This document shows positions 26,336 through 61,072 of a stretch of DNA of 64,000 bases, piece after piece. Within the stretch, counting starts at the first letter, position 1; each line of letters opens with the position of its first letter. The position numbers and the translations under genes are program-made. Below the pieces are notes generated by a model that was not told where the DNA came from, made no database searches, and saw only the letters and a program-made list of their open reading frames with translations. The stretch lies in IMG/VR virus record IMGVR_UViG_3300027733_000040, positions 1 through 64,000 of that record. One strand, written 5' to 3'. Source of the DNA: a virus.

Positions 26336-26395
26336 GTGATAATACACTTATTCTATTTCTTGGGATTCTGATAGGTATTGTTCATCGCCGAGTTG
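26184..26395. repeat. 14-bp perfect direct repeat TCATCGCCGAGTTG (26184-26197 and 26382-26395)
   Basis: Read directly; the second copy lies in the 3' end of sbcD. Confidence 0.8.
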
Positions 26396-27436: not shown

Positions 27437-27459
27437 ATTTTGTTCCTTAATGGTGATAA

Positions 27460-35893: not shown

Positions 35894-37708
35894 ATGTTAG
35901 AAATCAAATCGGTTAAGTGGCGTAATTTTCTTTCATATGGTGATTATGAATCGGTATTATCTCTTGAGGATCCTGGGAGCTGCTTAATAACAGGTGAAAT
36001 AGATTCTGGCAATTCGCCCCAAGTCGGCTCAGAAGATATTCGCAAATCTAATGGTTCTGGTAAGAGTTCTATTCCAAATGTCGTATTGTGGGGCCTATTT
36101 GGCCGTACCATGCACGCTTCGTCAGCTGGTGATTCGATCATTAATCACTTTACTGGCAAGACTTGCGAAGTTATAATCGATTTTAAAAACGGTGATCAAA
36201 TTATCAGGCGTCGTCAAAAAGGCGGCACTACGGAAGTGTTGTTTAGTAGAGATGGCGATGAAACTAGGATTTCAGCCGACACCGTTTCTACATCTAAAGC
36301 CATGCAATCGCAGCTTAATAAGACCTTCAATCTCGACTATGATATATTTTGTGGTAGTGTTTTCTTTAATCAATATGGCCGTTCGTGGATGGAAATGAGC
36401 GAAGTCGCGAGGAAAAAGGCTTTAGAAAAAATTCTAAGAGTCGATAGGTTTAGCTTCTATGCCAAAATTGCTAAAGCTAAATCTGACAATGCTCAATTTC
36501 TTTTTACAAATTTTAAATCTAAAATTATAGACCTTGAAGCCAACAGAGATAGGACGATAAGTGATATCCAGTCTTATCGCGAAGAAAGTGGCGCCTATGA
36601 AATCAAGAGAGCCAAAAGGATATCTGATATAGATGCTATGATCGCTACTGTCAATGAAAAGATGAATAAGATAACCATACCAGATATAGATAAGTTAACC
36701 GAAAAGTGGAAGTTAATAGAAAAGATTAAAGCTGAAATCGATAGATTAAAATCTGAAGATGCTGGACATTTTAGAACTATCGCTACCATAGAATCGAATA
36801 TAGCCGTCTTAAAAAAGCGACGCGATGAGGTTAACAAGCTACAGGGCAAGAGTTGTGTCGCTTGCCAACAATCTATACCATCAAGCATGATAACAAATAA
36901 TCTTGACAAGATTGAAAAAGAGTTAACTACATTTGGTGTGCAATTAGCCGATGCTACCGCCGCTAGAGAAGAGAGCAATAAGGTTATTAAGAAGTACGAG
37001 ACTATGTTATCGGCTAAAATACCTAACATCACCATTATGGAAGCTAATAACCTATCAACCATAGTTTTAAATTATAAAGCTGAAATCAAAAGATTAATGG
37101 CGCTACGGGCAGAGACCGAGACCGACAGCGACCCTAATCAGACAATCATAGAGAGGCTAGAAAGTAGGTTAAAAGATATCCTCGACAATATTTTAAAACA
37201 CAAAAGCGATTTAGAAGATATTACGGTGTTAGATAAGCATTATACTTATTTATATAAATCTTATAATGACAGAAATAAAGTAAAAAGCTTTATGTGTGAA
37301 GAGCATCTTCCTTATATTAATTCTCGCCTAGAACATTATTTAGGCATTTTAGGTCTAGATATTAAGATAAAGATCGAGAACGATCTTAGAATCACAAGTA
37401 ACATGTGGGGCTATGAATATCAGTCAGGCGGCGAAAGAAAAAGGACAGATCTTGCATTTATGCTTGCGTCTTATGATTTTTATGAAGTAATGTATGGTAG
37501 GCAATGTAATTTGATGGTTTTAGATGAGGTCGATGGCAGGATGGATGAGGATGGGATAGAAGGTCTGATAAGTATCATAAGAAATGATTTATCATCAAGA
37601 ATAGACAACATATTAATTATCTCACACCGTAACCAAATGTTTGATGTTTTTGACAGAGAACTAAAGGTAAAAAGGATTAACAGATTTTCTATACTATCTG
37701 GAAATTAA
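35894..37708 (+). CDS. sbcC: Rad50/SbcC/gp46-like ATPase
   Basis: NFLSYG, NGSGKS, CVAC zinc hook, QSGGE, LDEVD, ISH; coiled coils. Confidence 0.92.
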   Translation: MLEIKSVKWRNFLSYGDYESVLSLEDPGSCLITGEIDSGNSPQVGSEDIRKSNGSGKSSIPNVVLWGLFGRTMHASSAGDSIINHFTGKTCEVIIDFKNGDQIIRRRQKGGTTEVLFSRDGDETRISADTVSTSKAMQSQLNKTFNLDYDIFCGSVFFNQYGRSWMEMSEVARKKALEKILRVDRFSFYAKIAKAKSDNAQFLFTNFKSKIIDLEANRDRTISDIQSYREESGAYEIKRAKRISDIDAMIATVNEKMNKITIPDIDKLTEKWKLIEKIKAEIDRLKSEDAGHFRTIATIESNIAVLKKRRDEVNKLQGKSCVACQQSIPSSMITNNLDKIEKELTTFGVQLADATAAREESNKVIKKYETMLSAKIPNITIMEANNLSTIVLNYKAEIKRLMALRAETETDSDPNQTIIERLESRLKDILDNILKHKSDLEDITVLDKHYTYLYKSYNDRNKVKSFMCEEHLPYINSRLEHYLGILGLDIKIKIENDLRITSNMWGYEYQSGGERKRTDLAFMLASYDFYEVMYGRQCNLMVLDEVDGRMDEDGIEGLISIIRNDLSSRIDNILIISHRNQMFDVFDRELKVKRINRFSILSGN

Positions 37709-42993: not shown

Positions 42994-43764
42994 ATGGCAA
43001 ACTATTGTGATAGCGCCGTTTTGGAGAAAACCTGGTACCTTTGGATACTGGGTTCGTCACACCCAGATCTTGAACAATACAGGGCCTACAATTTATTGTA
43101 TACAAAACCCTGTTCGCCGGCAATGGTTGACGGGAAAATTCTTAAAAAACATGGGAAGGAATTGCTTGACCCTAGATCTGAGTATAAAATACATTGCTTA
43201 GCCCTTCCTATCCCCGTTTTTTTCAAATCCCGTAATAACATTGTAACAGGTCGATATCGTCTTTGCAATATCTCTTCTAAGACTCCTTTCACACTAGATA
43301 GACGTTTGTTCACTATGGATAATATGTTTATGGGAAATGCGCTTAAGAACAACATATTTAAGCAGAAGTTAGAAGTGATCCCTAAGCTTTTAGAAGAAGG
43401 GTATATCAAAGAGCAACCGACTTCGGCATCATGGCATGACCTTCTTGCTGATATTGGTAAGATGTGCACAGGGATTAGTATGCGTTTTAATCTCTTGAAT
43501 GACGACGAATATAGTGATCTCTCAAATGATGCACTATTACAAGTGATAAATAAATTAGTTAACAATAGGTTAGTATATACCCCCGGAAGAGCACCGGTAT
43601 TTAATTTACTTACCACTACCATACATCGTTGTATGTTTAGTCTGCTTAATAAAAAGAATAGTCAGAAAGCTGGTTTAAATAAATTATTGTCAGATTCTCA
43701 ATATAATCTTATACCAAAAATTAATAGGAGTCTTAAGACCCTGACACATAACCCGAGAAAATGA
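42994..43764 (+). CDS. T4 gp55-like late sigma factor
   Basis: C-half KMCTGISMRF...DLSNDALLQV...YTPGRAPVFNLLTTTIHRCMFSLLNKKNSQ matches the gp55 region-2 pattern; AGGAG SD. Confidence 0.6.
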   Translation: MANYCDSAVLEKTWYLWILGSSHPDLEQYRAYNLLYTKPCSPAMVDGKILKKHGKELLDPRSEYKIHCLALPIPVFFKSRNNIVTGRYRLCNISSKTPFTLDRRLFTMDNMFMGNALKNNIFKQKLEVIPKLLEEGYIKEQPTSASWHDLLADIGKMCTGISMRFNLLNDDEYSDLSNDALLQVINKLVNNRLVYTPGRAPVFNLLTTTIHRCMFSLLNKKNSQKAGLNKLLSDSQYNLIPKINRSLKTLTHNPRK

Positions 43765-43765
43765 C

Positions 43766-44755
43766 ATGAGATATAATAGGGCCATTTCGCCTAATGCTGT
43801 ACACAGCTCCCATCTGCTGACAAGATTAAAAGCTCAAGCTGTTAAAGTGTCTATTGTAAATGGTCCTCAGCCAGGTGTGCGCCACCAGCAGCGTTCTGCT
43901 CCTTTACCTCCTAAGCCCGAAAAGCCACCCACGAAGATCCAAGATAGTGCAAGAGTTGCGCCCAAGAAGGCGGGGGCAGTCGAAGTTCGCCAGCAGCAGG
44001 CGATGCAAAGACAGGATATAAAGAAAAAGCGAGAGCCACGTGTTACTTATGTATCACGGACAGTTGACCCGATCTACCTAGAAAAGACAAAAGCCTTAAA
44101 AGATACCGGCCGAGGAAAAACGCTTATAATAATAGGCAATGGGCCGACGCTTAATGAGGTTGATTTAAGGGGCCTTAAACATAAACCAGGTATAGAATTT
44201 CTATCTGTGAATTATCCTGATCCTAGATTATGGCCAACTGACTATTGGGCTTTCTTTGATTCATCTCAGATTCAGCGACACGCTGCTCTTTGGGATGAAT
44301 TCAATGGAACCATCTTTAATTCTTCGTCGATACAAAGACGAAAGACAGGGACCATCCAATTCAGAAATATAGGTGTTAAATCATTTAGTAAGGATTTAGT
44401 AGATGGTTTATGCATAGGCAGAAGTAGCGTATTCGCTAGCATGCAAATCGCGCTTTGGATGAATTTCGATAAGATATACATTTTTGGCGTCGATATGAAC
44501 CCATCGACAGATTTAAAGAAATTACATTTTTACGGAACAAATCCTGACGTATTACCAGAAAATAGGGCAAAAAGGTTTGAAAAGGAAGCGGAATACTATG
44601 TTACAGCTTTTGAATCGATGTCAGAGAAGGAGAGAAGTAAGTTTACTTTCTGCAGCTCTGTTAACCCATGGCCCTTTATGTCTATGTTTAATAAACTAGA
44701 TCATAAGGTCGCTGCGTCCGAAATTTTACGTGATTATTTAAACCCCAAGGAGTAG
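43766..44755 (+). CDS. Maf/MptE(DUF115)-like, sialyltransferase-like glycosyltransferase with disordered basic N-terminus
   Basis: IIIGNGPTL, SVN, FFD, SSVF, IYIFGVDM, HFYG. Confidence 0.7.
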   Translation: MRYNRAISPNAVHSSHLLTRLKAQAVKVSIVNGPQPGVRHQQRSAPLPPKPEKPPTKIQDSARVAPKKAGAVEVRQQQAMQRQDIKKKREPRVTYVSRTVDPIYLEKTKALKDTGRGKTLIIIGNGPTLNEVDLRGLKHKPGIEFLSVNYPDPRLWPTDYWAFFDSSQIQRHAALWDEFNGTIFNSSSIQRRKTGTIQFRNIGVKSFSKDLVDGLCIGRSSVFASMQIALWMNFDKIYIFGVDMNPSTDLKKLHFYGTNPDVLPENRAKRFEKEAEYYVTAFESMSEKERSKFTFCSSVNPWPFMSMFNKLDHKVAASEILRDYLNPKE

Positions 44756-44762: not shown

Positions 44763-45152
44763 ATGACTAAGATTTACGTTGCATCAAGTTTATATAACAA
44801 AACCAATGTTAAGGCACTCTATAAATATCTTGCTTATTTACAATGTACTATTACTTATGATTGGACCACTCATGGTGGTGTAAATGATGAGGCTTCGCTT
44901 AAAGAGATCGGGCTCAAAGAATACCAAGGTGTTGTCGATTGTGATGTTTTGGTTATGTTAATGCCTGCGAGGCTTGGTTCGCATGTCGAGCTTGGTATAG
45001 CTTTAGCGCTCTGTAAACCGGTCATTATTATTACTAACGGTGAAGATTTCGAGAAAAAGTCATTTTATTTCTTAGACCATGTAAATATTATCAGAGATAT
45101 TGATGCTCTAAAAGGCGCACTTGATAAAATCACGGAACAAGAAAATGACTAA
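44763..45152 (+). CDS. Nucleoside 2-deoxyribosyltransferase / nucleotide N-hydrolase family protein
   Basis: KIYVASS, YDW, CDVLVMLM, GSHVELGIALALCKPV, carrying the catalytic Glu of the NDT/DNPH1/MilB fold. Confidence 0.75.
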   Translation: MTKIYVASSLYNKTNVKALYKYLAYLQCTITYDWTTHGGVNDEASLKEIGLKEYQGVVDCDVLVMLMPARLGSHVELGIALALCKPVIIITNGEDFEKKSFYFLDHVNIIRDIDALKGALDKITEQEND

Positions 45153-45822
45153 TGGCGAACTGCTCACCAGAATAGAAATAGATGTTTTCCAAGGAAACGA
45201 AATCCTAGAATCCTTTGAATTAGCTCATAAGTACCGTCTGCCTGCGATCATAGTACATCCTTCATTAAGCTCTGATGCTTTGGTTTGTAGAGGCAGATCA
45301 AAAGGGAAGTATAAGATCATCACGCCGGTAGATTGGCCTAGGGGTGAAGTCTTCTCTACAGATAAGTTCAAGGGTCTAAGCTTAGATTCTTTAGAGACCG
45401 ATGGTTTTGAGATATACATATCGCCAAAAAAGCAAAAGGGCGATATCAGAAAAGAAATAATTTCGTGTACAGAGTTTTTAAAGAAGTTTATTGGCGAGCT
45501 TTGTGAAATAAGATTCGTCATAGGCACAAGGACTAAGGATGAAGCTGATCTAGCGAGTGCTTATGAGGCCTTTCGTGATCTAAAGACACCGACTTTAATT
45601 CGAGACGATATCTCCTTGAAGACTCAGAATTACAAGGCCAATCCAGCTATACACAGCGCTTTTATCACCAACATGTCGCAATTCTTAAAATGCCCGATAA
45701 AAGTAAGTGGTAATCTTGACTGTATTGAAGATTTACTGGCCTGCGAACCTGCAAAGCGATTTGGTGCCAGTCTTCAGCAGACCAAAGGCATAATTAGAAG
45801 TATTAATACGGTGAAAAAATGA
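45145..45822 (+). CDS. DeoC-like aldolase TIM barrel, probably catalytically altered
   Basis: VHP, VDWPRG, IKVSGN and RFGAS match the DeoC layout, but KTSTG is replaced by RDDIS. Confidence 0.6.
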   Translation: MTNGELLTRIEIDVFQGNEILESFELAHKYRLPAIIVHPSLSSDALVCRGRSKGKYKIITPVDWPRGEVFSTDKFKGLSLDSLETDGFEIYISPKKQKGDIRKEIISCTEFLKKFIGELCEIRFVIGTRTKDEADLASAYEAFRDLKTPTLIRDDISLKTQNYKANPAIHSAFITNMSQFLKCPIKVSGNLDCIEDLLACEPAKRFGASLQQTKGIIRSINTVKK

Positions 45823-46115
45823 ACATTATTGAAATATTAGACCAGTTAGATGATGATATCGGTCTTTTATTTAAGACCGAGCAATGGTTACATTCAGAAA
45901 AATCGCGTGTGTCAGCTGAAGCTTCTGACATACTAAACAGATTAAAAGCAATTGACAATGCTATAAATCTGAAGAAGGTATTGAATAACATAGACATTGG
46001 GGCTTTAAGGCATGCCTACGATGATGGTTTCCACGGAAAAGAAAATTTAATGCTTGAATTGATCAAATCCTATCTGAATAATTCTTCGGCGGAGGCTCAA
46101 GATGCAACGCGGTAA
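45819..46115 (+). CDS. Hypothetical coiled-coil protein
   Basis: Overlaps both neighbours; GGTG SD. Confidence 0.55.
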   Translation: MNIIEILDQLDDDIGLLFKTEQWLHSEKSRVSAEASDILNRLKAIDNAINLKKVLNNIDIGALRHAYDDGFHGKENLMLELIKSYLNNSSAEAQDATR

Positions 46116-47301
46116 GTTCAATGTGGTTACTGATGGTCAGTTCGGTAGCACCGGAAAAGGGCTGATCACTTCTTACCTTGCACAAAAACACAGACCCGAA
46201 TTTTTATCAAACACCAATATGGCCAATGCTGGACACACAGCCGTTAATGTAGATGGCACTGCTTATATCGCTAAAGCAATGCCATCGGCTGCGATATTAA
46301 GAAAATGGCTACCTGATTACAATCCTTGGATAATAATGGGTTCTTCTTCTGCATTTACGCTACCGCAGCTAATGAAAGAAGTCGAAATAACTGGAAGTGT
46401 CGATAGGCTTATTATTCACCAAAGAGCTATGGTGATCACAGAAGAGCACAGGCAAAGGGAAAACGAAGGCAAGGATAGCACAAAGCATTTAGCGAGCACG
46501 ATGCAGGGCTGTGGGGCCGCCATAGCAGACAAGATCCAAAGATTGCCAGGGACCAAGCTTGCAGTTGATTACGAAGAATTAAGTCGATTTGTATTTTGCA
46601 AAACGTGGACACGACCTTCTTCTATATTAGAGGATATGTCTCTTTTTGATCCATTTAATGTGATGTGTAAACACCATTGTGAAGCCCTACACGAATACAT
46701 TGACTGTGTACTCAGGGCTACGTTCACTTTTCTCCACGAAGGCGCTCAGGGATTTTCGCTTGATATCAATCATGGCCACTCATATCCTACTTGCACTAGC
46801 CGCGGTACATCGGCAATTCAGAATTTAGCCGATATGGGTATTTCGCCCAAGTTCCTTGGTGATGTATATCTGGTACTTCGACCATATCCAATAAGAGTTG
46901 GCAATGTGATCGAAGATGGTGTTCAGCAAGGGTATTCTGGTGGTGGTTACGATGACCAAGTCGAAATCGATTGGGAAGAAATAGCAAGAAAATCTGGGAT
47001 GCCGCTAGAGTACGCTACGATATTAAGAGAGAAAGAGAAAACCACCGTTACAAAAAGGGTTAGAAGGGTGTTTTCTTTTTCTAAAAGGCAACTGCGTGAG
47101 GCCGTGATGGTGAATGGTGCCACTAAATTAGCTCTTAATTTTGCTAATTATATCGACTGGGCTTGCTTTGCATCATCATCAAAAGACAAACTTACCCCAA
47201 AGATCCTTGATTTTATAAAAATGCTCGAGGATGTCGCCGGAATACCTGTAACGCTTGTTGGAACTGGCCCACAATATGACCACGTCATTGACCTATCGTA
47301 A
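46102..47301 (+). CDS. purZ: PurZ, 2-amino-deoxyadenylosuccinate synthase (adenylosuccinate synthetase paralogue)
   Basis: DGQFGSTGKG (Ser where PurA has the catalytic Asp of GDEGKG), NAGHT, ST.QG, EGAQG, YPTCTSR, RPYPIRV, TTVTKRVRR, NFANY (PurA has TKLD); GGAGG SD. Confidence 0.85.
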   Translation: MQRGKFNVVTDGQFGSTGKGLITSYLAQKHRPEFLSNTNMANAGHTAVNVDGTAYIAKAMPSAAILRKWLPDYNPWIIMGSSSAFTLPQLMKEVEITGSVDRLIIHQRAMVITEEHRQRENEGKDSTKHLASTMQGCGAAIADKIQRLPGTKLAVDYEELSRFVFCKTWTRPSSILEDMSLFDPFNVMCKHHCEALHEYIDCVLRATFTFLHEGAQGFSLDINHGHSYPTCTSRGTSAIQNLADMGISPKFLGDVYLVLRPYPIRVGNVIEDGVQQGYSGGGYDDQVEIDWEEIARKSGMPLEYATILREKEKTTVTKRVRRVFSFSKRQLREAVMVNGATKLALNFANYIDWACFASSSKDKLTPKILDFIKMLEDVAGIPVTLVGTGPQYDHVIDLS

Positions 47302-48067
47302 TAATCTAGAAGTCTCGGCTTGCATCGACGAACATCATGATAATATTGATGAATCTATAGATCTAATTAGAGCTACTGGATTTAAATCAGCGTCTATACT
47401 TAATATAAATGGATTGTCGCTCACTTCTTTACCAGACATTACTATAGAGAGAATTAAGAAAAGACTATCGGATATGCCGATAAATGTCATAAGGATAGAG
47501 TTAGGTCATGGAAAAACAATAGCTCCAAAAGATATAGACAAAGAATTATCGATAGCTTCTTATTTTAAAGCTAAGGCGATCCAAATCGGCATCGAAAAAT
47601 CATCATTTCTCGATAAGGCGAGTTTCGATGATTTTATCAGTAGATTATCATCATTTGCTGTGTCGATGTCATTAGTACCGATATTAGAAATGACTGATCA
47701 TATGTTTATTGACACACCAGCCGATCTCGATAAATTCTTATCGTCACATAAAAGAATTAAGTTATCTTATGATCCATGCCGTTTTATGGAAAGAAGCAAT
47801 AAAAATCCACACGAACGCTGGTTTGAACCTCTTAAGACGAGTGTTTACAGTATAATAGCAAGAGATTTTAAAACAGGCTCCGGTTTTTATCCTATTGGCC
47901 AAGGCGCTACCAATATTGTTAAAGCTATAGATGAGCATATTTTAAACGGTGGTAGATACGCTATATTTAGACCGTCACTTGGAAGACGGTATGGTAGCAC
48001 AGTCGGAAAGAAAGAAACATTTAAGTTAGCTTTGGAAGTGTTTAATAATCTATTCAGGAGTATTTAG
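47276..48067 (+). CDS. Xylose-isomerase-like/AP_endonuc_2 TIM barrel, degenerate
   Basis: ACIDE, PILEM, SYDP, ARDFK and PIGQG resemble sugar-phosphate isomerase/epimerases; the His and last Glu ligands are not evident. Confidence 0.55.
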   Translation: MTTSLTYRNNLEVSACIDEHHDNIDESIDLIRATGFKSASILNINGLSLTSLPDITIERIKKRLSDMPINVIRIELGHGKTIAPKDIDKELSIASYFKAKAIQIGIEKSSFLDKASFDDFISRLSSFAVSMSLVPILEMTDHMFIDTPADLDKFLSSHKRIKLSYDPCRFMERSNKNPHERWFEPLKTSVYSIIARDFKTGSGFYPIGQGATNIVKAIDEHILNGGRYAIFRPSLGRRYGSTVGKKETFKLALEVFNNLFRSI

Positions 48068-48280
48068 ATGCTTAATGTCAACGAAGCAATTCAGAAGATA
48101 AAATCTATCGGAGCCAGCAACGTTAGAATAGTTCCGATGGCTGGTCAGCCGATCAATAATGGTGATCATCAGATCGAGATTAAATCCGGAGCTAGTTGGG
48201 AATCGATTGTGTCTGGTGTAAAAAAGAAAATGGCAGAAGACATTGTAAATCAAGCTATAAACAAGGTTATCCTTGGTTAA
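48068..48280 (+). CDS. Hypothetical protein
   Basis: AGGAG SD, 70 aa. Confidence 0.65.
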   Translation: MLNVNEAIQKIKSIGASNVRIVPMAGQPINNGDHQIEIKSGASWESIVSGVKKKMAEDIVNQAINKVILG

Positions 48281-48720
48281 TGATAAAGAAAATAAAATCC
48301 GTAATAGAATTGTCCAAATATAAAATAGGTAATAAATTATATTTCATAGATTTATACACAGATTCAGACAGGGATTTAATACAAAGCGATTTAAATTGGA
48401 TGTTGGCTTGTCACCCTAAAATTTTCTTTGTCAAAAAGATATATAAATACAATACTAAATCGAAATATATATGTCCTAGACTTCCTAGTGCTGTTTTTAG
48501 TATATTATCATCTCTGTTAGTAGGTCAATTTAATATAATATGCTTTGAAGTTTCAGCGATTAAACGCTGTGCCAATACCGGCGAATTCTATTATTTCGAT
48601 GGTAGTGGCGACTGGCACCCAGAATCGATATTATTCACCACAGAGCGCAAAGCGCTTAACGAAAAGAAGCGAATTTTATCGCTGGTTGATGATTGGGCTT
48701 CGCACAATCGTGGCGATTAA
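48280..48720 (+). CDS. Hypothetical protein
   Basis: TAATG-coupled ATG at 48280. Confidence 0.55.
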   Translation: MIKKIKSVIELSKYKIGNKLYFIDLYTDSDRDLIQSDLNWMLACHPKIFFVKKIYKYNTKSKYICPRLPSAVFSILSSLLVGQFNIICFEVSAIKRCANTGEFYYFDGSGDWHPESILFTTERKALNEKKRILSLVDDWASHNRGD

Positions 48721-48729: not shown

Positions 48730-49254
48730 ATGAAGATAACTAAAGTTAATATATCCTTACCAAAGGTCGCTCAAAAGCACGATTATGACTGCGGAGCTGC
48801 AGCTTTAAAGTCGATATATGAATATGAACACCCAGAAGACAAAAACGACTTATCAAAGTATACCAGATTATTAGGTAGCACTAAAAATAAAGGGACAAGC
48901 ACGCAAGAATTAGTTGCAGCTTGTAAGTTATTAGGTCTTAACTTTAAAGAATACCATGGCATGTCACTTTCTAGGCTGCATAAAGAAATTAAGATCGGAA
49001 ACCCGATACTTTGTCTCATAAGATCGAATGATCATGGCCACTTCGTAGTGGCTTTGGGATGTGATGATGATAATATCTATTTCGAAGATCCTTTTAAAAA
49101 GAAAAATAACGGCTATTTGCCTAAAAAAGAATTTTTCGAAAGATGGACAGATGGCGATAACCATAGCGATCTTAAACGGTTTGGATTGATTTTTAAGGTA
49201 TCGCGTCCAAAAACAAAAAAGAAAATTACAGCCTATAAGATTTTAGGAAATTAA
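48730..49254 (+). CDS. C39-family cysteine peptidase
   Basis: QKHDYDCGAAAL (Gln, Cys), GHFVV (His), FEDP (Asp). Confidence 0.85.
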   Translation: MKITKVNISLPKVAQKHDYDCGAAALKSIYEYEHPEDKNDLSKYTRLLGSTKNKGTSTQELVAACKLLGLNFKEYHGMSLSRLHKEIKIGNPILCLIRSNDHGHFVVALGCDDDNIYFEDPFKKKNNGYLPKKEFFERWTDGDNHSDLKRFGLIFKVSRPKTKKKITAYKILGN

Positions 49255-49255: not shown

Positions 49256-52200
49256 ATGGCAGATAATACAGATATAACGAGATCTAATTATGTCGAATTA
49301 ATCTCTGTAGATGTCGATTCAATGCTAATGGTGTGCAATGATAAGTACAAGACCGTTGAGAGCAGCTTGCCTAGGATTTTGAACGGTATAGATTATCAGG
49401 CTTGTGATGCGCTTGCTGTTGTTGCGCCGCCAACAAATAAATTTGTGACAAATGTAGAAAATGTTCCAGGGTCTTTAAGAGAATTAGTAAGACGACCCAA
49501 TGTTATTCTCACATCGTTTAACGCTATTAGTTTTTTAGGTCAGGATATTAATTTAGACACCACCGATAATATACCAACTATCACGTCGACTATTCCGACT
49601 CTGCCTGATATTAATTGCCAAAAATTTGGCACTTCGGTCTCTTGCAAGAAGAATAGTGACAAATGTTCCATCGATTTGCATTTTATAGATGCTTCGAGTT
49701 TAAATACCGGCATTGCCCCAGGCAGAGCGTTACTCCAGACCAACAAGGCCCTGCTTAGCGGTGGGTATGATTATCGATTGGCTATATCTAAAGTCAGAGG
49801 CACACCAGAATATATCGGGTTTTTCGCTGGTAAACAATACTATAAGCTTTCACTAAATACATTAAAGGGTTTTTGGGATAATTCTTGTGAGAATGACAGG
49901 ATGATGGTCGATAAGTATGCCGCAATGGTTTCGGAGCCTGTTAATTCTTCTACAGTAAATCTAATCGGTGTTTCAACTGCTAACGCTTTTACATATGGTT
50001 TTAATAGTCAGTCATATGGTAGTCTTAGTAATATTGCAGTCTCATCCATAGTGAGATCTGTCGGGTTTAAGATGGAGCTGGCATTAACCAGTTCAGGTAA
50101 GGCGTTAGATGGAAGCTGGCGGTTTGATCTTGCGCCGGCCAGTGGCCTTAACCTTAACCCTATGTTTAACACTAGCGGTCGCACGGGGCCATTAAATTAT
50201 CAAATATTAATCGATTCGACTAAAAATCTATCGGGAATGGCCGATAATGATTTTTCTTTAAACGGTGCTGATCTTAAAAAAGTAGAGCCTTCGGATTATC
50301 TGCGATTTAGATCCTTAGCGACTAAGATCTTTTGCATTTATGTAGATCATCGTACTACTGGATTAGCATTAGACGATAACTTTAATTTTATAGATTCTGC
50401 GGTCGGCGGCTCAGACCAATTTGAGGCATTTAGGCAAGCCATACAATGTGGCCATAAGTTTTTGTTTATTTTAAATGACGAAACGATAAGCGCGTCCCAA
50501 GATTACTATAATTTTGTAGCGTCAGTCGGTATTGCTAGCGCAGCGGTTGTGCTAATAGATAGTCAGACCGCAGCGGGCGGTGAATACTTTGACCAGATAT
50601 TTAGCTCTATAAATACTTTGTGCGGTTATGTTGGTCCTAACACGACACCAGGTGTATCGGCTTTTGGCTCTGTTAAGGAATTATGGCAGGGAGGATCGCT
50701 TTTTAAAGGTTCTAATCTTAAATCATTAACTCACTTCAAGATAAATAGTAGCTACACGTCACCAGACACGACTCCGCGGATACCTGAAGTATTAACTAAC
50801 AATGAATCTTTAATTAGTTATGATTCTGTATTCGATAGGATTCTTTATATTGAGCAATCAGACGATTCCGTCTATAGATTATTTGCCATGAATATGAAAA
50901 CACGTGAACGTTCTGCAATTGCACCTTTACCTTTTTTGTTCGATATTGTGATAGGTTTAGACAGCAATGTTCCTTCAGTCCAAATGTATGACCCTGGAAT
51001 GCGGTTATTTTTCATTGGTACTAGTTCTGGACATCTATATTCGGTCGATGTTACGACCGGAAAATCGTCAGAGATCGTAATAAACTCGATAGACTTTGTG
51101 CCAAGGCCAGAGCGGCGATATCCATCTATTACAGGGATTGGTATAGGGTATGTTCCATCTTACGATTACAATGGGGTTACTGATTTTTCTGGCCATCGTG
51201 CACTGTTTGTAGGATTCAATGCCGCAGGTTCGAATGATATCAAGCGTTATAGTATCTTGCGATCTTATGTTTATGATGTGTTGGTCTTTAATAAAACAGG
51301 GATAGCATCAAAAATAACACCATTAGTAAGTCTTGATTTGCCTTTGGCTGGAATGGCGAATCTGCGCAGTTTTAGTTTTATGTGTGCTCCAGTTTTTAAT
51401 TATCTTATTAAGAATTTGCCTGCCACACCGGTCTCAGAATTTGTTTCAAACCAGAAATTGCCTGGTCTTTTGTTATGTTATGATATTATGGACACCAACC
51501 AGAATCAAATAACACCGGAATCTGGACGTTGTGTTGCGATAAATCCGTTGATTCTCAATAAAGTGTTTGCGAGTCAAGCAAGCATCCAATATAACATATT
51601 AGATACTTTTATTATACCGGCTTATTATCCTGTTACCAATCGTGCCGATTGGGTTACGATTGACGATTTTGGCGGCTCGGTTATCTGGTCCTCATTAGAC
51701 ATTACGCCCACGAAAACAGTCCTCGATTATTATTATGTGCCGGTACCTCCTGCTGGCGTTGACAATAAAGGCATCGAATTTTTCCCTTCTCTTGCTGTTT
51801 TATTAAATAGCTATGAGGCTGGCGGCAATGTTAGTAGTATTTTCTTCAGAGATTCTTTAGAATGTTCCGTTGGTGTAAAGGGTGTCGAGAGGCATGACTT
51901 TGGGCCTAAGAATATGAATTGTTGGGACCTTAGTAATAGTGCTTCAGCCCCTGTGTCTGATTCTTTTGTCGGTAATGAATTAGTTCTTAGATACGGAGAA
52001 TCTGTTAGTAAAAATTATAACCTCGAGGCCGGAAAATACTTTGTCACTATAACCACTTCCGATTATCGCATAGGTACTGACGATGCTGGGCAAAATCTTA
52101 CTGGTCTGGTTGATATTATTACTTCTGGAGGTAGCAGGTTCCATTATCTGCCAGCGCGACTAGATTCGACACCATTGGAAAAATTAAAGGTGCAATCGGT

Positions 52201-55200
52201 CCCTTTTCAAGGCGTTAACCCAACAGCTATAACCACAGCTGGATCATTAACCTACTTATTTGATATGCCAGCAGCGTTTAATATTACACTTAAGAATAAT
52301 TTAAAACCAGGGGCGATTACTTCTGAATTCGATAACACTAAATTCATTCCTCGTGGCGTTGGTGTCTACGGTATTAAGTTATGCAAGCTTCTTGATCAAA
52401 CAGTTATATTAGATGGTATAAAGGATGTAAAATTAAACATCTCAGTTACTGGTATACCACGCCAAGAAGTGAACATTTTTTCGGCATTTGTTAAGGTGAC
52501 TTACAGAGATTATGGAAGGCCAAATGTTAAAAAGGTCGCTTATCGCGAAGTCATTACGGACGGGCGTTCATCGCCGTATGCTGGTAACAGCGTGCCTGTC
52601 GATTGTGACTATAGCGACACATGCAATTATTGGAAACAAAACGGCAATGGCGGCATACCCTCACAGTATGTGCTAAATCAGATTAGACACAGCGATTCAC
52701 AGATGGAATCGACTACCAATTTTAAAATAGTCGATGTTACGTTATATAATAATTGCATCTGGTGTATACCAGCTGGATCGAGCAGGTTTGATCAAGCTAC
52801 TGGAAAATATGTTCCGACAGATACCGCAGATACTTATACCATATTCTTTGGTGATTTTAAAACAGATATGATTGTAGAATCTATAGAGTATTTCTTCTTA
52901 GTTAATAAGATAGTCGATACTTCGAGTACCCCGCCAACTTGTGTCGACAATAAATCAAATTGCAAACCTGACCCAGCAACAGATATTGTAGTCCACTTAG
53001 ATTACACTAATTGTAACAAAGAAATTAAGAGATTAACTCGAACTATAAATATCGGTTCTATAGTAGCAATAGAGCATGATCTTAGTAAAGTATTTCCTAG
53101 CAGTAGATGGGATTATATTAGACCACCATCTTCAAACGGAACGGCTTTGGGGCCACCAATTGGAAATGCTATTAACGGCAAAATAGGTGAATGGATATCA
53201 TTTAAAGAGATTCTAGATAATACGACCGGTACTGGCGCTGACCAGTGTTCCGCCCCTATTTCTAATCAGTTGATATATAATGGTACTTCTTTAACTTCCG
53301 ATCGCCCTACTGGCTGCGATATTCCAAATCCAAAAATCGGTGCTATAAGCCTTTTTGCTAAAAAAGTAAAACCTGCATTTGTCATAACTGACATATCTGA
53401 GACTTCTCTAACAAATGAAATTCAATATATTACAATACCGCAAGCCGATGGTGGCATCTTTAAGCTTACTTTTGCTAAAAATGGTGTAACCCAGACGGTG
53501 ACTGTTCCTTATAATGTAACAGCCGCTCAGCTAAAGACTATTTTAGAAGCGAACACGCTAATTGGTCCTAACAATGTTCTAGTTACAGCGGTCGGCACAA
53601 AAAGTTATAAGATTGAATTCGTTGGAGCATTAAAAGGTTTAGCTATTCCGATTATGAAACCCATAAGCGATGGTCTTATTGGAACGTATTTTGCTTATAC
53701 AAGTCGTTCAGTGGTTGGCACCAAAAACGAGAGGCAAACCATAAGCAATGTTTCTGCTTCTAACAGAGCTTTTACCATTTTTTTTGCCGGCCAACAAACG
53801 GTAACAATTCCATACGATGCTAGTTTGAATACTGTCAGGGCCGCTTTGTCTGCATTGCCTTCAATCGGCGGCGGGAATGTTGCTGTTTCTGGCCAGACTA
53901 CTAATTATGATGCCCCTTATACTGGCCCATGGAACATTGATTTTATAGGCACTTTTGCAGGAAAGAATGCATCTAGGCTCTCCACATCTAACAAGGACTA
54001 TGTTGTTTATGTCGATTGGGTCGGTGGTATAGGTGTTAATGAAGTGCAAAAATTCAGCTACAAGGCCAATTCCGGTAGATTTAGTCTATCATTGTATGGA
54101 CCGACTGGTGCTTTTTGTACAACAGCGCCGATCGAGGCCACAGCTACCAATAGCGATATAGTTAAGAGTATAGTAGCAAATTGTAGTTTTTATGCTGCTG
54201 AAGACATTGGGTTAACGTTAGTCCAAAACGGAAATGTTTACGACTGGACTATAGAGTACAAAGGCAAGGCGACAGCCCAACCTGTTAAGCAGATAGGTAT
54301 ACAATCAGTCGATCTTGTCGGTGACGAAGTCACTGTTGTTAGAGTAGAAAAAGGTGGCGGTAAGCCACAAAAGATTAGATGGTCGTATACAAATGCCACA
54401 GCAGGTTTTTATATTTTAAGATTCGAATCAATCGATAAGCATATTTATTTTTCAGACAGGATATATTATAACGCTACGGCGGCAGAGATACAGACGATCA
54501 TAGAGAGTATGACTTTATTTGCGCCTGGTGACGTGACGGTTGTCCAATTAGACATAGGTGTTGTTGGGTCATACGAATATGTGCTTACTATTAAAAAGAA
54601 AATAAGTGCACTACAAGTTACAGCCATTTTTGAGACCACGTTATTTGGAAGCCCAATTTCATATTATATCGTGCCTGATGGGCCATATCCTTACCCATTG
54701 CCTTATTGTCCGTCTTTGACGCCTAAGATACATGGTGTTGATGGGTTGGTCTGCGTGCCTTTTCCTCCCGAGGAGGGCGATCCTTTTGCAGATGAGATAT
54801 GCTGTACCCCAGAGACCATATCTAGCGCTGCAAATAAATCGACATTCTTTAAGATCGAAAGAGATCTTTTCAGTCCTAGTTTTCAGATTAATGGTAAGTT
54901 AGCCACTGTGGGTTCGCTTATGGCGGCTAGGAATTTTAAGAAAAGCATTTATAAACCTTACTATTTAGTATCTAATACCTGTGTCGACCTTGTCGAGGCG
55001 AAATACACAGATGAAATTAAGAGCCGGACCATTATCGTGATTATTAATAAGAAGGTCGATCTTGAAGTCCCTAAGATCAGAATTATAAACCGCATCAAGA
55101 GTAATTATCCTAAGCTTGATTATTGTAGAGCTTTATCTTTTGAGAAAAACAAGGGTGGTCAGGATTTTCCAGATATATTGCCAGATAAAAACTATAATAT

Positions 55201-55204
55201 ATAA
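49256..55204 (+). CDS. 1982-aa putative virion protein with a propeller-like region and four ~105-aa NE[IVR]Q-type repeats
   Basis: Repeats NEIQYI...GGIFKLTF...IPY[ND]A...L..I..GNV.V...IEFVG at about 53410-54590. Confidence 0.6.
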   Translation: MADNTDITRSNYVELISVDVDSMLMVCNDKYKTVESSLPRILNGIDYQACDALAVVAPPTNKFVTNVENVPGSLRELVRRPNVILTSFNAISFLGQDINLDTTDNIPTITSTIPTLPDINCQKFGTSVSCKKNSDKCSIDLHFIDASSLNTGIAPGRALLQTNKALLSGGYDYRLAISKVRGTPEYIGFFAGKQYYKLSLNTLKGFWDNSCENDRMMVDKYAAMVSEPVNSSTVNLIGVSTANAFTYGFNSQSYGSLSNIAVSSIVRSVGFKMELALTSSGKALDGSWRFDLAPASGLNLNPMFNTSGRTGPLNYQILIDSTKNLSGMADNDFSLNGADLKKVEPSDYLRFRSLATKIFCIYVDHRTTGLALDDNFNFIDSAVGGSDQFEAFRQAIQCGHKFLFILNDETISASQDYYNFVASVGIASAAVVLIDSQTAAGGEYFDQIFSSINTLCGYVGPNTTPGVSAFGSVKELWQGGSLFKGSNLKSLTHFKINSSYTSPDTTPRIPEVLTNNESLISYDSVFDRILYIEQSDDSVYRLFAMNMKTRERSAIAPLPFLFDIVIGLDSNVPSVQMYDPGMRLFFIGTSSGHLYSVDVTTGKSSEIVINSIDFVPRPERRYPSITGIGIGYVPSYDYNGVTDFSGHRALFVGFNAAGSNDIKRYSILRSYVYDVLVFNKTGIASKITPLVSLDLPLAGMANLRSFSFMCAPVFNYLIKNLPATPVSEFVSNQKLPGLLLCYDIMDTNQNQITPESGRCVAINPLILNKVFASQASIQYNILDTFIIPAYYPVTNRADWVTIDDFGGSVIWSSLDITPTKTVLDYYYVPVPPAGVDNKGIEFFPSLAVLLNSYEAGGNVSSIFFRDSLECSVGVKGVERHDFGPKNMNCWDLSNSASAPVSDSFVGNELVLRYGESVSKNYNLEAGKYFVTITTSDYRIGTDDAGQNLTGLVDIITSGGSRFHYLPARLDSTPLEKLKVQSVPFQGVNPTAITTAGSLTYLFDMPAAFNITLKNNLKPGAITSEFDNTKFIPRGVGVYGIKLCKLLDQTVILDGIKDVKLNISVTGIPRQEVNIFSAFVKVTYRDYGRPNVKKVAYREVITDGRSSPYAGNSVPVDCDYSDTCNYWKQNGNGGIPSQYVLNQIRHSDSQMESTTNFKIVDVTLYNNCIWCIPAGSSRFDQATGKYVPTDTADTYTIFFGDFKTDMIVESIEYFFLVNKIVDTSSTPPTCVDNKSNCKPDPATDIVVHLDYTNCNKEIKRLTRTINIGSIVAIEHDLSKVFPSSRWDYIRPPSSNGTALGPPIGNAINGKIGEWISFKEILDNTTGTGADQCSAPISNQLIYNGTSLTSDRPTGCDIPNPKIGAISLFAKKVKPAFVITDISETSLTNEIQYITIPQADGGIFKLTFAKNGVTQTVTVPYNVTAAQLKTILEANTLIGPNNVLVTAVGTKSYKIEFVGALKGLAIPIMKPISDGLIGTYFAYTSRSVVGTKNERQTISNVSASNRAFTIFFAGQQTVTIPYDASLNTVRAALSALPSIGGGNVAVSGQTTNYDAPYTGPWNIDFIGTFAGKNASRLSTSNKDYVVYVDWVGGIGVNEVQKFSYKANSGRFSLSLYGPTGAFCTTAPIEATATNSDIVKSIVANCSFYAAEDIGLTLVQNGNVYDWTIEYKGKATAQPVKQIGIQSVDLVGDEVTVVRVEKGGGKPQKIRWSYTNATAGFYILRFESIDKHIYFSDRIYYNATAAEIQTIIESMTLFAPGDVTVVQLDIGVVGSYEYVLTIKKKISALQVTAIFETTLFGSPISYYIVPDGPYPYPLPYCPSLTPKIHGVDGLVCVPFPPEEGDPFADEICCTPETISSAANKSTFFKIERDLFSPSFQINGKLATVGSLMAARNFKKSIYKPYYLVSNTCVDLVEAKYTDEIKSRTIIVIINKKVDLEVPKIRIINRIKSNYPKLDYCRALSFEKNKGGQDFPDILPDKNYNI

Positions 55205-57719: not shown

Positions 57720-58004
57720 ATTTCTGAAGATGAATTATCAGAAATCAATAAGAAGTATTCCGCCATCCTTGATGACATTAAAATGTTAGAGGAAATGATA
57801 TCTATATTGCCTTCAAGAACAGCACTCGAACTTAGGAGTGTGTTTGGCAAAATTATGCGCGATATTGCCGTTTGCCACAAGGGTTTAGCAATTCTTGCTA
57901 AAGAAAAAGTGGATTCATTAGTATCAGATTTGAATTATATGTCATTTGATCTTGAAGCCACAAGGAGAGAGCGGGATGAATATAAAAGAAAACTTGGCGA
58001 ATAA
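57720..58004 (+). CDS. Small coiled-coil protein with FDLEATRRE motif, resembling a conserved small planctomycete protein
   Basis: YMSFDLEATRRERD. Start is either ATT at 57720 (AGGAG 6 nt upstream) or ATG at 57783. Confidence 0.6.
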   Translation: MSEDELSEINKKYSAILDDIKMLEEMISILPSRTALELRSVFGKIMRDIAVCHKGLAILAKEKVDSLVSDLNYMSFDLEATRRERDEYKRKLGE

Positions 58005-58992
58005 TTTAAAAAGAGAATCGATATTAATCACAGGTGGTGCTGGTTTTTTAGGTAACAAAGTCGTCCAATGTTTCATGGAAAACGGTTTTGGCTCAGAATG
58101 TGTAAGAGGCCAGAAAGCCAGACCTAATAATGTTTATATTAATCGATCAGTATTATTCGATCTTACTATTGAGTCACATGTTTCAGAATTGTTCAGCCGT
58201 CTATCGCCTACCATAGTTATACATCTAGCTGCTGCTGTCGGTGGTATCGGTGCTAATCAAAAAACACCAGGTTCTTTTTTTTACAAAAATGCCATGATGG
58301 GGATACTTCTACAAGAGTATGCTAGAAGGCATAATGTTAAAAAGTTCGTTACTATCGGCACAGTTTGTTCATATCCTAAATTCACGCCATCACCTTTTAA
58401 AGAATCAGATTTATGGAATGGCTATCCGGAAGAGACAAATGCGGCCTACGGCATCGCAAAAAAAGCCTTGCTTGTGCAGAGCCAAGCCTATCGCCAAGAG
58501 TATGGCTTTAATGGGATTCATCTGTTGCCCGCCAACTTGTATGGTCCGCTTGACAATTTTGATGATAGCACATCACATGTTGTCCCAGCGATCATCAAAA
58601 GAATCTACGAGGCCAAAAGAGACAAATTAGATCATGTAACCGTTTGGGGCGATGGTTCACCCACTAGAGAATTTCTATATGTGGATGATGCAGCGAGAGG
58701 TATAGTGCAAGCTACCTCGACATATGATAGTCCTGAACCAATAAATTTGGGATCAGGGAGAGAGATTAGCATAAAAGATTTAACGACCAAGATAGCTCAA
58801 ATAATTGGATATGATGGTCTAATAAAATATGATCATTCAAAGCCCAACGGGCAGCCTAGGAGGAGCCTCGATAGTACGCAGGCAGCACTAAAATTTAATT
58901 TTCAGACGACCACTGATCTTGACACAGGGCTAAAAACTACTATTGATTGGTATATTGATCACATTTCTTCTATTGGAGCAGTTAGAAAATAA
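57976..58992 (+). CDS. fcl: GDP-L-fucose synthase
   Basis: TGGAGFLG, HLAAAVGGI, GTVCSYP, YGIAK, NLYGP.DNF, SHV, WGDGSPTREF. Confidence 0.92.
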   Translation: MNIKENLANNLKRESILITGGAGFLGNKVVQCFMENGFGSECVRGQKARPNNVYINRSVLFDLTIESHVSELFSRLSPTIVIHLAAAVGGIGANQKTPGSFFYKNAMMGILLQEYARRHNVKKFVTIGTVCSYPKFTPSPFKESDLWNGYPEETNAAYGIAKKALLVQSQAYRQEYGFNGIHLLPANLYGPLDNFDDSTSHVVPAIIKRIYEAKRDKLDHVTVWGDGSPTREFLYVDDAARGIVQATSTYDSPEPINLGSGREISIKDLTTKIAQIIGYDGLIKYDHSKPNGQPRRSLDSTQAALKFNFQTTTDLDTGLKTTIDWYIDHISSIGAVRK

Positions 58993-58993
58993 A

Positions 58994-59791
58994 ATGAAAA
59001 GTCGTATTGAACGTGTTCTTCCAACCGCTTATCTTATAGGTCAAACGACACTTGATTTAGATCAATTAACCAAATATCTCGAAGATACTGACGCCAAGCC
59101 ATTCGTTAGAGAAGTAGAAGAAGCAAGATTTTCTGGTGTGTCTGATATGGAGATTATTTGTTCCGTATATGCTAAATTATGCTATAAATCTTTTGTCGTT
59201 GGTACGAATAAAAACATAACAAGAACGAGATCTATAAAGGATAACATCAAAGGATGTTTCGATGTTAAGCATGGCAGCATATTCGAGCATGTTTTCTTTA
59301 ATTTTATCATTAAAGATTGTTCAAGGATTTTTACACATGAGCTTGTACGACACAGGGTCGGCACAGCCTTTAGCCAAAATTCTGGGCGCTATATTAGAGA
59401 AGATGTGATACGTGTTGTTCTTAGCCCAGACATAGAGCATTCAAAAAAGATCGACGCTATCTTAGAGAATATCTGCGCCGGTTATGATGAGTTAGATTAT
59501 GAATTAGATATCGATTCTACTATAAGGTTCGACGAAAAGAAAAAATTAACCAGTTCTATCAGACGAATCCTGCCTAATATGTGCGCTAATGACATAGGTT
59601 TTACTGTCAATGTCCGAGAATTAAGACACATACTTTTGATGCGTACTTCCCGCCATGCCGAATGGGAAATGCGGTATGTTTTTGACAAGATTTATAAATT
59701 ATTACTACCAAAATATGGTGCCTTTTTCCATGGTTTGCATGTAGGGTCACATGAAGGATATGTAGAGATTACTGAGGAGCCTTATGTATAA
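58994..59791 (+). CDS. thyX: Flavin-dependent thymidylate synthase
   Basis: HGSIFEH, SRIFTHELVRHR, FSQNSGRY, RRILP, NVRE, HAEWEMR. Confidence 0.92.
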   Translation: MKSRIERVLPTAYLIGQTTLDLDQLTKYLEDTDAKPFVREVEEARFSGVSDMEIICSVYAKLCYKSFVVGTNKNITRTRSIKDNIKGCFDVKHGSIFEHVFFNFIIKDCSRIFTHELVRHRVGTAFSQNSGRYIREDVIRVVLSPDIEHSKKIDAILENICAGYDELDYELDIDSTIRFDEKKKLTSSIRRILPNMCANDIGFTVNVRELRHILLMRTSRHAEWEMRYVFDKIYKLLLPKYGAFFHGLHVGSHEGYVEITEEPYV

Positions 59792-60344
59792 AATAACTTT
59801 AGAAAGGCTCAATGGTAACGATTTGCCGCTACCTAAATTCGAGACAAGTGGTTCTGCGTGTTTTGACATATCAGCATGTTTAACACGTCGGATGTCTGAA
59901 TGCTTACTAAATGGAAGAAAAAAGCATTTTTTATATAAATGGCATGCTACGAATTTAAGGAAGTATGTTGAAGGACTAGAAGATGTATTTTCTGAAGAAT
60001 CAGAAATGTCACGGTTATACATTCATCCTAACGAAACCATTTTGATACCAACTGGATATAAAGCATCATTTGCTTCAGATTTAGTGTTAAAATTATACAT
60101 CAGGTCTTCTATCGGTTTAAATGGTCTCAATCTAGCTAACCAAGTAGGGATTATTGATTCTGATTATCGTGGTGAGATCTTTATAGCTATAAAAAACAAT
60201 TCTGACATCGCCCAGACTATAAACCACGGTGACCGTATCGCCCAAGCAATGCTTGAATGTATAGTTAAACCAGAGATCATTGCTGGTGTCGTTGATCCCA
60301 CAGCGCGCAATGATGGTGGTTTTGGCTCTACTGGAAGAAAATGA
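59784..60344 (+). CDS. dut: Trimeric dUTPase with an insertion
   Basis: Motifs SACFD, RSS, GIIDSDYRGEI, GDRIAQ, R.DGGFGSTG. Confidence 0.9.
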   Translation: MYKITLERLNGNDLPLPKFETSGSACFDISACLTRRMSECLLNGRKKHFLYKWHATNLRKYVEGLEDVFSEESEMSRLYIHPNETILIPTGYKASFASDLVLKLYIRSSIGLNGLNLANQVGIIDSDYRGEIFIAIKNNSDIAQTINHGDRIAQAMLECIVKPEIIAGVVDPTARNDGGFGSTGRK

Positions 60345-60844: not shown

Positions 60845-61072
60845 ATGATTGAAAATTCTCAAGCTTCTTTTTCCGTGTGGACTTTAGACGGAAAAGACTA
60901 TTTTGAATTCAATAATGATGGGATTATAATTCATAGATTAGATACTGAACAGGCGGCCGTTGATGTGGCTAAGGATAAGACAGCCCACCACTGGTTATTG
61001 CTAGATGATGATAAAGATAAATATACTGCAGGAGGCACTAATGACTCAAAAAAGATTTTCAAGCGTAGATGA
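60845..61072 (+). CDS. Hypothetical protein
   Basis: GGAG upstream; 75 aa. Confidence 0.5.
   Translation: MIENSQASFSVWTLDGKDYFEFNNDGIIIHRLDTEQAAVDVAKDKTAHHWLLLDDDKDKYTAGGTNDSKKIFKRR

Follow-up and report, generated by a model that had tools for sequence, protein, structure and literature searches.

To our knowledge, the genomes shown experimentally to contain 2-aminoadenine (Z) are all those of small siphophages or podophages that replicate with PolA or PrimPol and carry either DatZ/MazZ or DutZ/DmtZ as helper enzymes. In the latest survey of NCBI viruses, Z phages fell into seven groups, and every group had the combination PurZ/DpoZ-2 or PurZ0/DpoZ-1 (PMC12884076). In phages with PurZ0, the NDT-family enzyme DmtZ acts on dAMP by hydrolysis and moves deoxyribose-5-phosphate onto the Z base; both dATP and dGTP are hydrolyzed by DutZ, which is homologous to dUTPase (PMC12884076). 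An NDT obtained from dZ-enriched contigs prefers dA (bioRxiv 10.1101/2025.10.22.683976). Roles in the Z pathway have thus been shown or proposed for members of the NDT family, namely, DmtZ (PMC12884076) and NDT-M2 (bioRxiv 10.1101/2025.10.22.683976). Here we describe a purZ-type gene in a 64,000-nucleotide stretch of viral DNA (here called the window), which is the first part (positions 1 to 64,000) of IMG/VR virus record IMGVR_UViG_3300027733_000040. The gene is as follows.

46102 to 47301, plus strand: purZ-type gene, homolog of succino-amino-deoxyadenylate synthase, 399 amino acids (identified by Pfam, PHROG, and PDB matches, by residues, and by trees)

Judged from its sequence, the chances seem about even that the product of this open reading frame (ORF) is a functional PurZ-type enzyme, from a separate PurZ lineage associated with jumbo phages, and that the phage has Z-containing DNA, in which the substitution may be full or partial. 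The enzyme belongs to an established family; what is new is the type of genome, the replicase, and the accessory module. Our literature search found no paper that linked PurZ, 2-aminoadenine, or diaminopurine to jumbo or huge phages or to DnaE.

The ORF starts with an ATG at 46102, which is preceded by GGAGG at 46092 to 46096. It matched Pfam PF00709 (Adenylsucc_synt; 1.5e-32) and PHROG 1211 ("2-aminooxy adenylosuccinate synthetase"; 2.6e-64). The top solved relatives were the PurZ proteins of phage phiVC8 (6FM1/6FKO; 9e-44) and cyanophage S-2L (7ODX; 4e-38), followed at lower ranks by Pyrococcus horikoshii PurA (1e-35), the PurA-like protein 7VF6 (1.5e-18), and Escherichia coli PurA (approximately 1e-16). 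The P-loop of P. horikoshii PurA reads GDEGKG in the N-terminal alignment. Among NCBIfam families, the PurZ model NF038379 scored best for the window protein.

Codon 16, which the first-pass annotation of this DNA had read as serine, is indeed AGC (46147 to 46149) and lies within GQFGSTGKG. The other signature motifs are PIRV (residues 263 to 266), TTVTK (314 to 318), and NFANY (346 to 350). Aligned with phiVC8 PurZ, F14 and S16 correspond to F12 and S14, P263 to P233, Y283 to Y244, W291 to W252, and T314 to T262, and the base pocket N346-F347-A-N349-Y350 corresponds to N294-F295-C-N297-Y298. In phiVC8 PurZ, T262 accommodates the 2-amino group and NFxNY forms the pocket for the adenine of ATP (bioRxiv 10.1101/2025.10.22.683976; PMC8342488). 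PurA has Gly at the position of T314. The shared catalytic residues are all intact (K19, N42, G44, H45, T133, R147, Q216, T232, V266, T317, and R321). Most of the signature positions were invariant across 30 sampled members of the clade, the position of F14 being variable (W/F/H). NFANY was invariant in these 30 members and replaces the guanine-binding TKLD of PurA; PurZ0 and cellular paralogs differ at this site.

Maximum-likelihood trees were built with two models, LG+G4 (126 rows) and the LG+C20 posterior mean site frequency (PMSF) mixture model (54 rows), and were rooted on canonical PurA; no short PurA of the P. horikoshii type was included among the rows. Branch support was assessed by the Shimodaira-Hasegawa-like approximate likelihood ratio test (SH-aLRT). 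One clade, with support values of 99 (LG+G4) and 97 (LG+C20 PMSF), united the jumbo lineage with Bacillus phage 140 and classical PurZ. The classical group comprised phiVC8, S-2L, SH-Ab 15497, and GSTGKG sequences from metagenome-assembled genomes. Support for the jumbo lineage was 93, and it was 97 to 98 for the wider group that includes the sequences from two further loci, L017 and L046 (LG+G4). PurZ0 fell elsewhere, among cellular paralogs, in both trees. We rejected membership in PurZ0 on this basis and because GSTGKG and NFANY are both present. In these trees, the window protein falls within the PurZ clade proper, where it forms its own lineage next to classical PurZ, away from PurZ0, canonical PurA, and the cellular paralogs with a GSEGKG P-loop; the tree with PurA, PurZ, and PurZ0 that the first-pass annotation had called for placed it with PurZ.

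The simplest alternative is that the gene encodes an ordinary auxiliary PurA, which would boost AMP synthesis from IMP, GTP, and aspartate during infection. The protein is a member of PF00709, source databases label it adenylosuccinate synthase, and genes for nucleotide metabolism are frequent in large phages. We nevertheless regard this as highly improbable. At the position of the catalytic Asp13, the general base of PurA, all 30 sampled members of the clade had Ser, and all 11 canonical PurA sequences had Asp. In addition, NFAN stands in place of TKLD, and all NCBIfam PurA models scored far below their cut-offs (e.g., TIGR00184, 137 versus 395 bits; NF003295, 208 versus 368 bits). Canonical PurA also formed a separate clade with a support value of 100. 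We therefore rejected membership in canonical PurA on the basis of both residues (Ser16 and NFAN) and tree position.

Ser-type P-loops are not confined to phages. A pattern scan of prokaryotic genomes returned 348 loci with such a P-loop, mostly combining GSEGKG with LNHxDY or LTFxDY, and 11 of the 12 genomes tested contained a full-length canonical PurA alongside the Ser-type paralog. Some of the short cellular PurA-like paralogs (loci L051 to L125) apparently carry an N-terminal extension of approximately 200 amino acids. The first-pass annotation had treated Ser16, PIRV, and NFxNY alike as residues that separate PurZ from PurA. All of them are present and NFxNY does discriminate, but PIRV is shared with PurZ0 and the cellular paralogs, and Ser16 alone does not set PurZ apart from these either. 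The discriminating features are therefore the NFxNY motif and the tree position, not PIRV or Ser16 alone.

Relatives of the window protein are numerous. A protein search with an E-value limit of 1e-10 yielded 2,593 proteins. The best 120 of the 2,593 were all at least 54% identical to it; all had GS[TCA]GKG and PIRVG, nearly all had TTVT[KR] and LNFANY, and many were on contigs of 150 to 440 kb. The largest contig with a protein at least 90% identical to it was of 314,743 bp. Relatives are encoded at 14 loci in IMG/VR, including one on a 355,825-bp genome (G007) with direct terminal repeats that was rated complete. The PurZ-type gene belongs to a whole, widespread clade and is not a one-off. 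Among cultured phages, tblastn gave 208 matches, all with less than 37% identity, and the best 60 of the 208 were in genomes of 38 to 68 kb. The closest was in Bacillus phage vB_BpsS-140 (36.7%), followed by classical PurZ phages (32 to 35%) and PurZ0 phages (25 to 29%). Among the matches listed, the cultured PurZ phages were of 38 to 68 kb and carried PolA or PrimPol, in agreement with the earlier description of characterized Z phages as small. At the nucleotide level, a megablast search of the locus against cultured phages gave no match.

Compared with a relative sharing 87% DNA identity, the gene had 139 synonymous and 16 nonsynonymous differences, giving a ratio of nonsynonymous to synonymous substitution rates (dN/dS) of 0.02; for its neighbors, the ratio was 0.008 to 0.066 against the same relative. 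The gene and its module are under strong purifying selection. In some distant relatives, the purZ-type gene is interrupted by one or two inteins with LAGLIDADG endonucleases. An intein inside a gene is usually the mark of an important gene. Five metagenomic relatives (P0138, P0139, P0143, P0145, and P0154) all had LAGLIDADG domains, three of the five had an intein-splicing domain, and at least two insertion sites were represented. One 1,197-amino-acid metagenomic PurZ-type relative carried two intein-type inserts.

The genes surrounding purZ form a conserved row on the plus strand, as follows.

42994 to 43764, plus strand: conserved protein of 256 amino acids, encoded by the first gene of the co-directional row (syntenic in eight more distant and three close relatives)
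43766 to 44755, plus strand: conserved protein of 329 amino acids with a weak MptE-like/WaaZ-like C-terminal match (synteny)
44763 to 45152, plus strand: nucleotide N-glycosidase-like protein of the NDT/MilB/BlsM superfamily, 129 amino acids (profile matches and synteny)
45121 to 45822, plus strand: TIM barrel with the fold of deoxyribose-5-phosphate aldolase (DERA), 233 amino acids (AlphaFold2 [AF2] and Foldseek)
45819 to 46115, plus strand: small ORF of 98 amino acids that overlaps both of its neighbors (conserved just in close relatives and in one other, L013)
47255 to 48067, plus strand: xylose-isomerase-like TIM barrel (fold of sugar-phosphate isomerases/epimerases and AP-endonuclease 2), 270 amino acids (AF2 and Foldseek)
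48196 to 48720, plus strand: conserved protein of 174 amino acids downstream of the 270-amino-acid TIM barrel (synteny; no family match)

The order 256-, 329-, 129-, and 233-amino-acid proteins, purZ, and 270- and 174-amino-acid proteins was kept in eight of nine large relatives (PurZ identity, 47 to 56%), and the ninth (L015) kept part of it. Searches with the 256-amino-acid protein gave no family match, and its Atlas matches were unnamed phage clusters. The 329-amino-acid protein matched PF01973 (9.7e-6) and TIGR04437 (5e-5), both below the cut-offs. A promoter and terminator scan gave no signal above chance. Next to the row, at 48730 to 49254 (plus strand), is a gene for a protein with a cysteine protease domain of the Peptidase_C39 family (5e-16), which was found in the closest relatives only. 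It is followed by a giant ORF of 1,982 amino acids, directly downstream of the purZ module, with 30 to 31% identity in two relatives; this is one of three giant ORFs (1,974, 3,575, and 1,982 amino acids) located within 9131 to 25795 (minus strand) and 49256 to 55204 (plus strand).

The 129-amino-acid protein is of interest because the DmtZ and NDT-M2 studies make an NDT-superfamily gene two genes upstream of purZ relevant to the Z pathway. The window copy matched PF05014 slightly below the cut-off (6.7e-6; 26.7 versus 28.8 bits), and two orthologs passed it. A profile of nine orthologs, searched against PDB sequences, matched BlsM (1e-5), MilB (1e-4), and NDT (1e-3). Y5 and E76 (in GSHVELG) were invariant in the nine orthologs, as expected for the catalytic Tyr and the Glu nucleophile of this superfamily. 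The gene was present in five of five jumbo genomes, with a dN/dS of 0.043.

For the 233-amino-acid protein, Atlas gave a weak DeoC lead. The AF2 model was of good quality (predicted local distance difference test [pLDDT], 85; predicted template modeling score [pTM], 0.84), and its top Foldseek matches were all DERA (E value, 5e-10; template modeling score, 0.73 to 0.80). An hhalign comparison of the family with E. coli DeoC gave no alignment. In the model, the invariant R161 on strand 6 appears to occupy the site expected for the Schiff-base lysine and K194 on strand 7 is kept, an assignment that follows the strand register in the model. The dN/dS of 0.008 indicates that the gene is not decaying. 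The 270-amino-acid protein (AF2 pLDDT, 79) matched YcjR (4e-9) and many epimerases in Foldseek; its profile matched Art22/AsbF in the PDB (5e-3), and the gene was syntenic in eight relatives.

The 96,988-bp record is linear, has a CheckV completeness of 27%, and showed no end repeats when these were looked for. We thus consider it a 97-kb fragment, or approximately 27%, of a phage of approximately 360 kb. The genes that bear on its replication and thymidine metabolism are as follows.

1904 to 3304, minus strand: DnaE N-terminal gene (PHP domain and DNA polymerase III alpha positions 17 to 98, the first third)
2 to 649, minus strand: second DnaE gene, which runs off the contig end (DNA polymerase III alpha positions 99 to 157)
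58943 to 59791, plus strand: ThyX flavin-dependent thymidylate synthase (PF02511, 6.4e-39; PHROG 85)
59784 to 60344, plus strand: trimeric dUTPase-family protein of 186 amino acids (PF00692, 2.6e-17)

DnaE is thus encoded by two genes on the minus strand, with three small ORFs between them. Its N-terminal gene was at most approximately 32% identical to any sequence from a cultured phage. Searches for PolA and PolB detected neither, and the split DnaE, a family-C polymerase as annotated at first, was the only DNA polymerase found. PolA and PolB were likewise searched for and not found in the complete relative G007. DnaE matches occurred in 9 of 12 records, and the break was at Pfam position 98/99, as in the window, in seven of the nine. 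Between the DnaE halves (window 2 to 3304, minus strand; L019:39-1349) are approximately 1.2 to 2.2 kb of small ORFs, including a C2H2 zinc finger at 636 to 980. The DnaE piece of G007 has an intein-like stretch at its end and is followed by a YhaM-like HD protein. The product of 3998 to 5527 (minus strand; 508 amino acids) matched Pfam Volactin, of the actin family, at 5e-38 over residues 149 to 504; this actin-like protein is encoded three genes from the split DnaE, in a phage of approximately 360 kb. Nuclease subunits resembling SbcD and SbcC, along with a DNA helicase (PHROG 100, 77, and 2488), are encoded within 26348 to 29193 and 35894 to 37708.

ThyX and the dUTPase-family protein, both named in the first-pass annotation, are encoded side by side, immediately downstream of a nucleotide-sugar epimerase gene (57946 to 58992, plus strand; PHROG 540, 1e-63). 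The dUTPase-family protein scored slightly below the NCBIfam dut cut-offs and matched the Dut domains of phages Wayne and Archimedes in phmmer searches (1e-6 to 2e-7). PHROG matches at 61005 to 62713 were tail-sheath-related and head-closure proteins, the tail-sheath-related ones being at 61937 to 62713; the assignment to a myovirus held, and that to a jumbo phage is supported by the sizes of the complete relative and of the contigs encoding proteins at least 90% identical to the PurZ-type protein. The majority of the remaining window genes had no PHROG or Pfam match. The source phage is deeply divergent and uncultured. That it is a very large phage of the contractile-tail type, which we infer to be a jumbo phage, is well supported.

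These observations can be combined into a pathway, in which we infer the substrates, what the neighbors do, and that the DNA in virions contains Z. The PurZ-type enzyme would convert dGMP, aspartate, and ATP to N6-succino-2-amino-2'-deoxyadenylate. Host PurB would then yield dZMP, and host kinases would yield dZTP. The phage's split DnaE would insert Z opposite T, so that A would be wholly or partly replaced by 2-aminoadenine. The strongest candidates for the removal or recycling of dA nucleotides are the NDT/MilB-like N-glycosidase, which might act in concert with the DERA-fold protein, and perhaps the dUTPase-family enzyme. PurB was searched for and not detected in the phage; known Z phages also lack PurB and use the host enzyme. 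The points in favor of this pathway are the signature residues, the tree, the dN/dS values, the conservation of the motifs across the clade, the inteins, the gene set of a small phage with a PurZ of the same lineage (L017, described below), the NDT-like gene, and the co-occurrence of ThyX and dUTPase.

Several observations weigh against it. The NF038379 score was 232 bits for the window protein and 221 bits for the G007 ortholog, both under the cut-off of 300 bits (for comparison, phiVC8 PurZ scored 397 and the Wayne enzyme scored 367), and a cellular paralog scored 237, near the window protein. Many cellular paralogs that co-occur with canonical PurA also have Ser in place of Asp13, and Ser alone is therefore no proof of PurZ chemistry. 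Arg319 is invariant in the clade and corresponds to Arg303 of E. coli PurA and to a Lys in phiVC8. In PurA, this Arg contacts the 2'-OH of IMP (PMC8342488), and a ribonucleotide substrate is therefore conceivable. Regarding the neighbors, the NDT-like family was compared with the NDT domain of Wayne DmtZ, giving an hhalign probability of 2.7% and no phmmer match, and the DERA-fold protein seems, from its model, to be without the Schiff-base lysine.

Part of this evidence would fit an enzyme whose substrate has diverged to GMP or another purine (deoxy)nucleotide, with the module serving a pathway for another modified nucleotide or nucleoside or for a sugar phosphate. Such an enzyme could account for the score under the curated PurZ cut-off and for the invariant Arg319, and a large family of cellular Ser-type paralogs exists. 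The neighbors have folds of the sugar-phosphate type (DERA, xylose-isomerase-like, and MptE/WaaZ-like), not of nucleotide hydrolases, and the nearest solved relatives of the N-glycosidase, BlsM and MilB, are CMP N-glycosidases from nucleoside-antibiotic pathways. However, the lineage itself lies inside the PurZ clade, and its small-phage member occurs in a classical Z-type gene set. We consider a diverged substrate distinctly unlikely. If the substrate does differ, the conserved module of five to seven genes would represent a new nucleotide-modification pathway.

The helper genes also count against a Z genome of the described kind. No gene of the DatZ/HD_3/YfbR-like, MazG, PF04447, or PF18909 type was found in the record or in ten large relatives, including G007. 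Specifically, searches of the HD (PF01966) and YfbR-like (PF12917) families revealed no DatZ in the record or the large relatives; PF18909/DUF5664 and MazG (PF03819) gave no match in the record or the ten large relatives; and PF04447 (DUF550) gave none in the record or relatives, but also none in the control genomes. Searches by phmmer with DatZ of three phages, S-2L MazZ, and the DUF550-DUF5664 protein of SH-Ab 15497 gave no match in the record or G007. The HD protein beside DnaE in G007 was tried as a DatZ candidate and rejected as YhaM-like. The components by which a Z cluster is recognized (i.e., a dATP-removing enzyme, a dGTP-to-dGMP pyrophosphohydrolase [MazZ/DUF550], and DpoZ [PolA] or PrimPol) were thus not found. 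From the list of DatZ, DUF5664, and DutZ, the sole possible candidate for dATP removal is the dUTPase-family protein, a generic member of its family. Under-representation of palindromes, used as a proxy for protection by Z, gave a mixed picture: GC-only sites were the most avoided, but several A-containing ones, such as GGATCC and GAGCTC, were avoided in G007 as well.

Part of this evidence would fit a phage in which a 2-aminoadenine deoxynucleotide is made but Z is minor or transient, either through partial substitution or because the nucleotide serves to manipulate pools or to counter host defense. Given that most polymerases fail to distinguish between A and Z (PMC8342488), mixed A/Z DNA would be expected where dATP is not removed. 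The known dATP-clearing enzymes all went undetected in the complete genome G007, where the A-containing restriction palindromes are under-represented. Against this, strong purifying selection has conserved the gene and module throughout a deep clade, and the NDT-like and dUTPase-family enzymes could remove dA, as in PurZ0 phages (PMC12884076). A minor or transient role for Z is, on balance, rather unlikely.

We therefore retain a working PurZ-type enzyme in a phage with Z-containing DNA as the favored explanation. Its full extension is more tentative, and we rate it as possible but somewhat doubtful: a globally distributed clade of phages of approximately 350 to 440 kb that would contain Z-DNA, replicate it with a split DnaE, and exclude dA by means of the N-glycosidase and a DERA-fold partner in place of DatZ/MazZ. 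If true, the range of noncanonical DNA would include giant phages, which are abundant in metagenomes from the environment; a DnaE-type replicase would be known to copy ZTGC-DNA; and a new means of excluding adenine from DNA would be identified. Metagenomic surveys and annotation pipelines would also be undercounting Z-type phages, given that such genes carry the label adenylosuccinate synthase and fall below the NCBI PurZ cut-off. The system would be a third, independent architecture for the biosynthesis of Z genomes, and jumbo phages would not have been known to have one before.

Compared with the known systems, the window protein shares with the PurZ proteins of phiVC8, S-2L, and SH-Ab 15497 the fold, the clade, GSTGKG, PIRVG, TTVTK, NFxNY, and the catalytic residues. 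It differs from classical PurZ in its sequence (32 to 35% identity), in its score below the cut-off of the NCBI PurZ model, in extra insertions (approximately residues 295 to 311), in a longer C terminus, and in having Arg319 where classical PurZ has Lys or Leu. The phage itself is of approximately 360 kb with a split DnaE, whereas classical PurZ phages are of 39 to 45 kb with PolA or PrimPol; it also lacks detectable DatZ, MazZ, DUF550, and DUF5664 and has other conserved neighbors of purZ.

With the PurZ0 systems (Wayne and Ghobes/Archimedes; PMC12884076), the phage shares the lack of DatZ and the presence of dUTPase-family and NDT-superfamily proteins in the genome. The PurZ0 enzyme, in contrast, belongs to another clade, has GSEAKG and no NFxNY, and is 26 to 28% identical to the window protein. 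The dUTPase gene of the window is 12 kb from purZ, being neither fused nor adjacent to it, unlike those of the PurZ0 systems, and PurZ0 phages use PolA (DpoZ-1) in place of a split DnaE. The cellular GSEGKG paralogs (Acidobacteriota, Binatia, Dehalococcoidia, Nitrosomonas, and archaea) resemble the window protein in the Ser, PIRV, short architecture, and similar PurZ score; they differ in having Glu after the Ser and LNHxDY or LTFxDY instead of LNFANY, and in forming separate clades.

A link to the classical systems is the 43-kb uncultured phage IMGVR_UViG_3300030397_000634 (L017), which encodes a PurZ of the jumbo lineage that is 42% identical to the window protein and that, in both trees, grouped with the jumbo sequences, either as their sister or among them. 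L017 differs from the window phage in its small genome and in having PolA, a DnaG-MCM primase-helicase, and DUF5664 (PF18909) and MazG near purZ. The jumbo-type PurZ lineage thus occurs within a classical Z-type gene set, which suggests transfer of purZ between the jumbo clade and small phages of the Z type.

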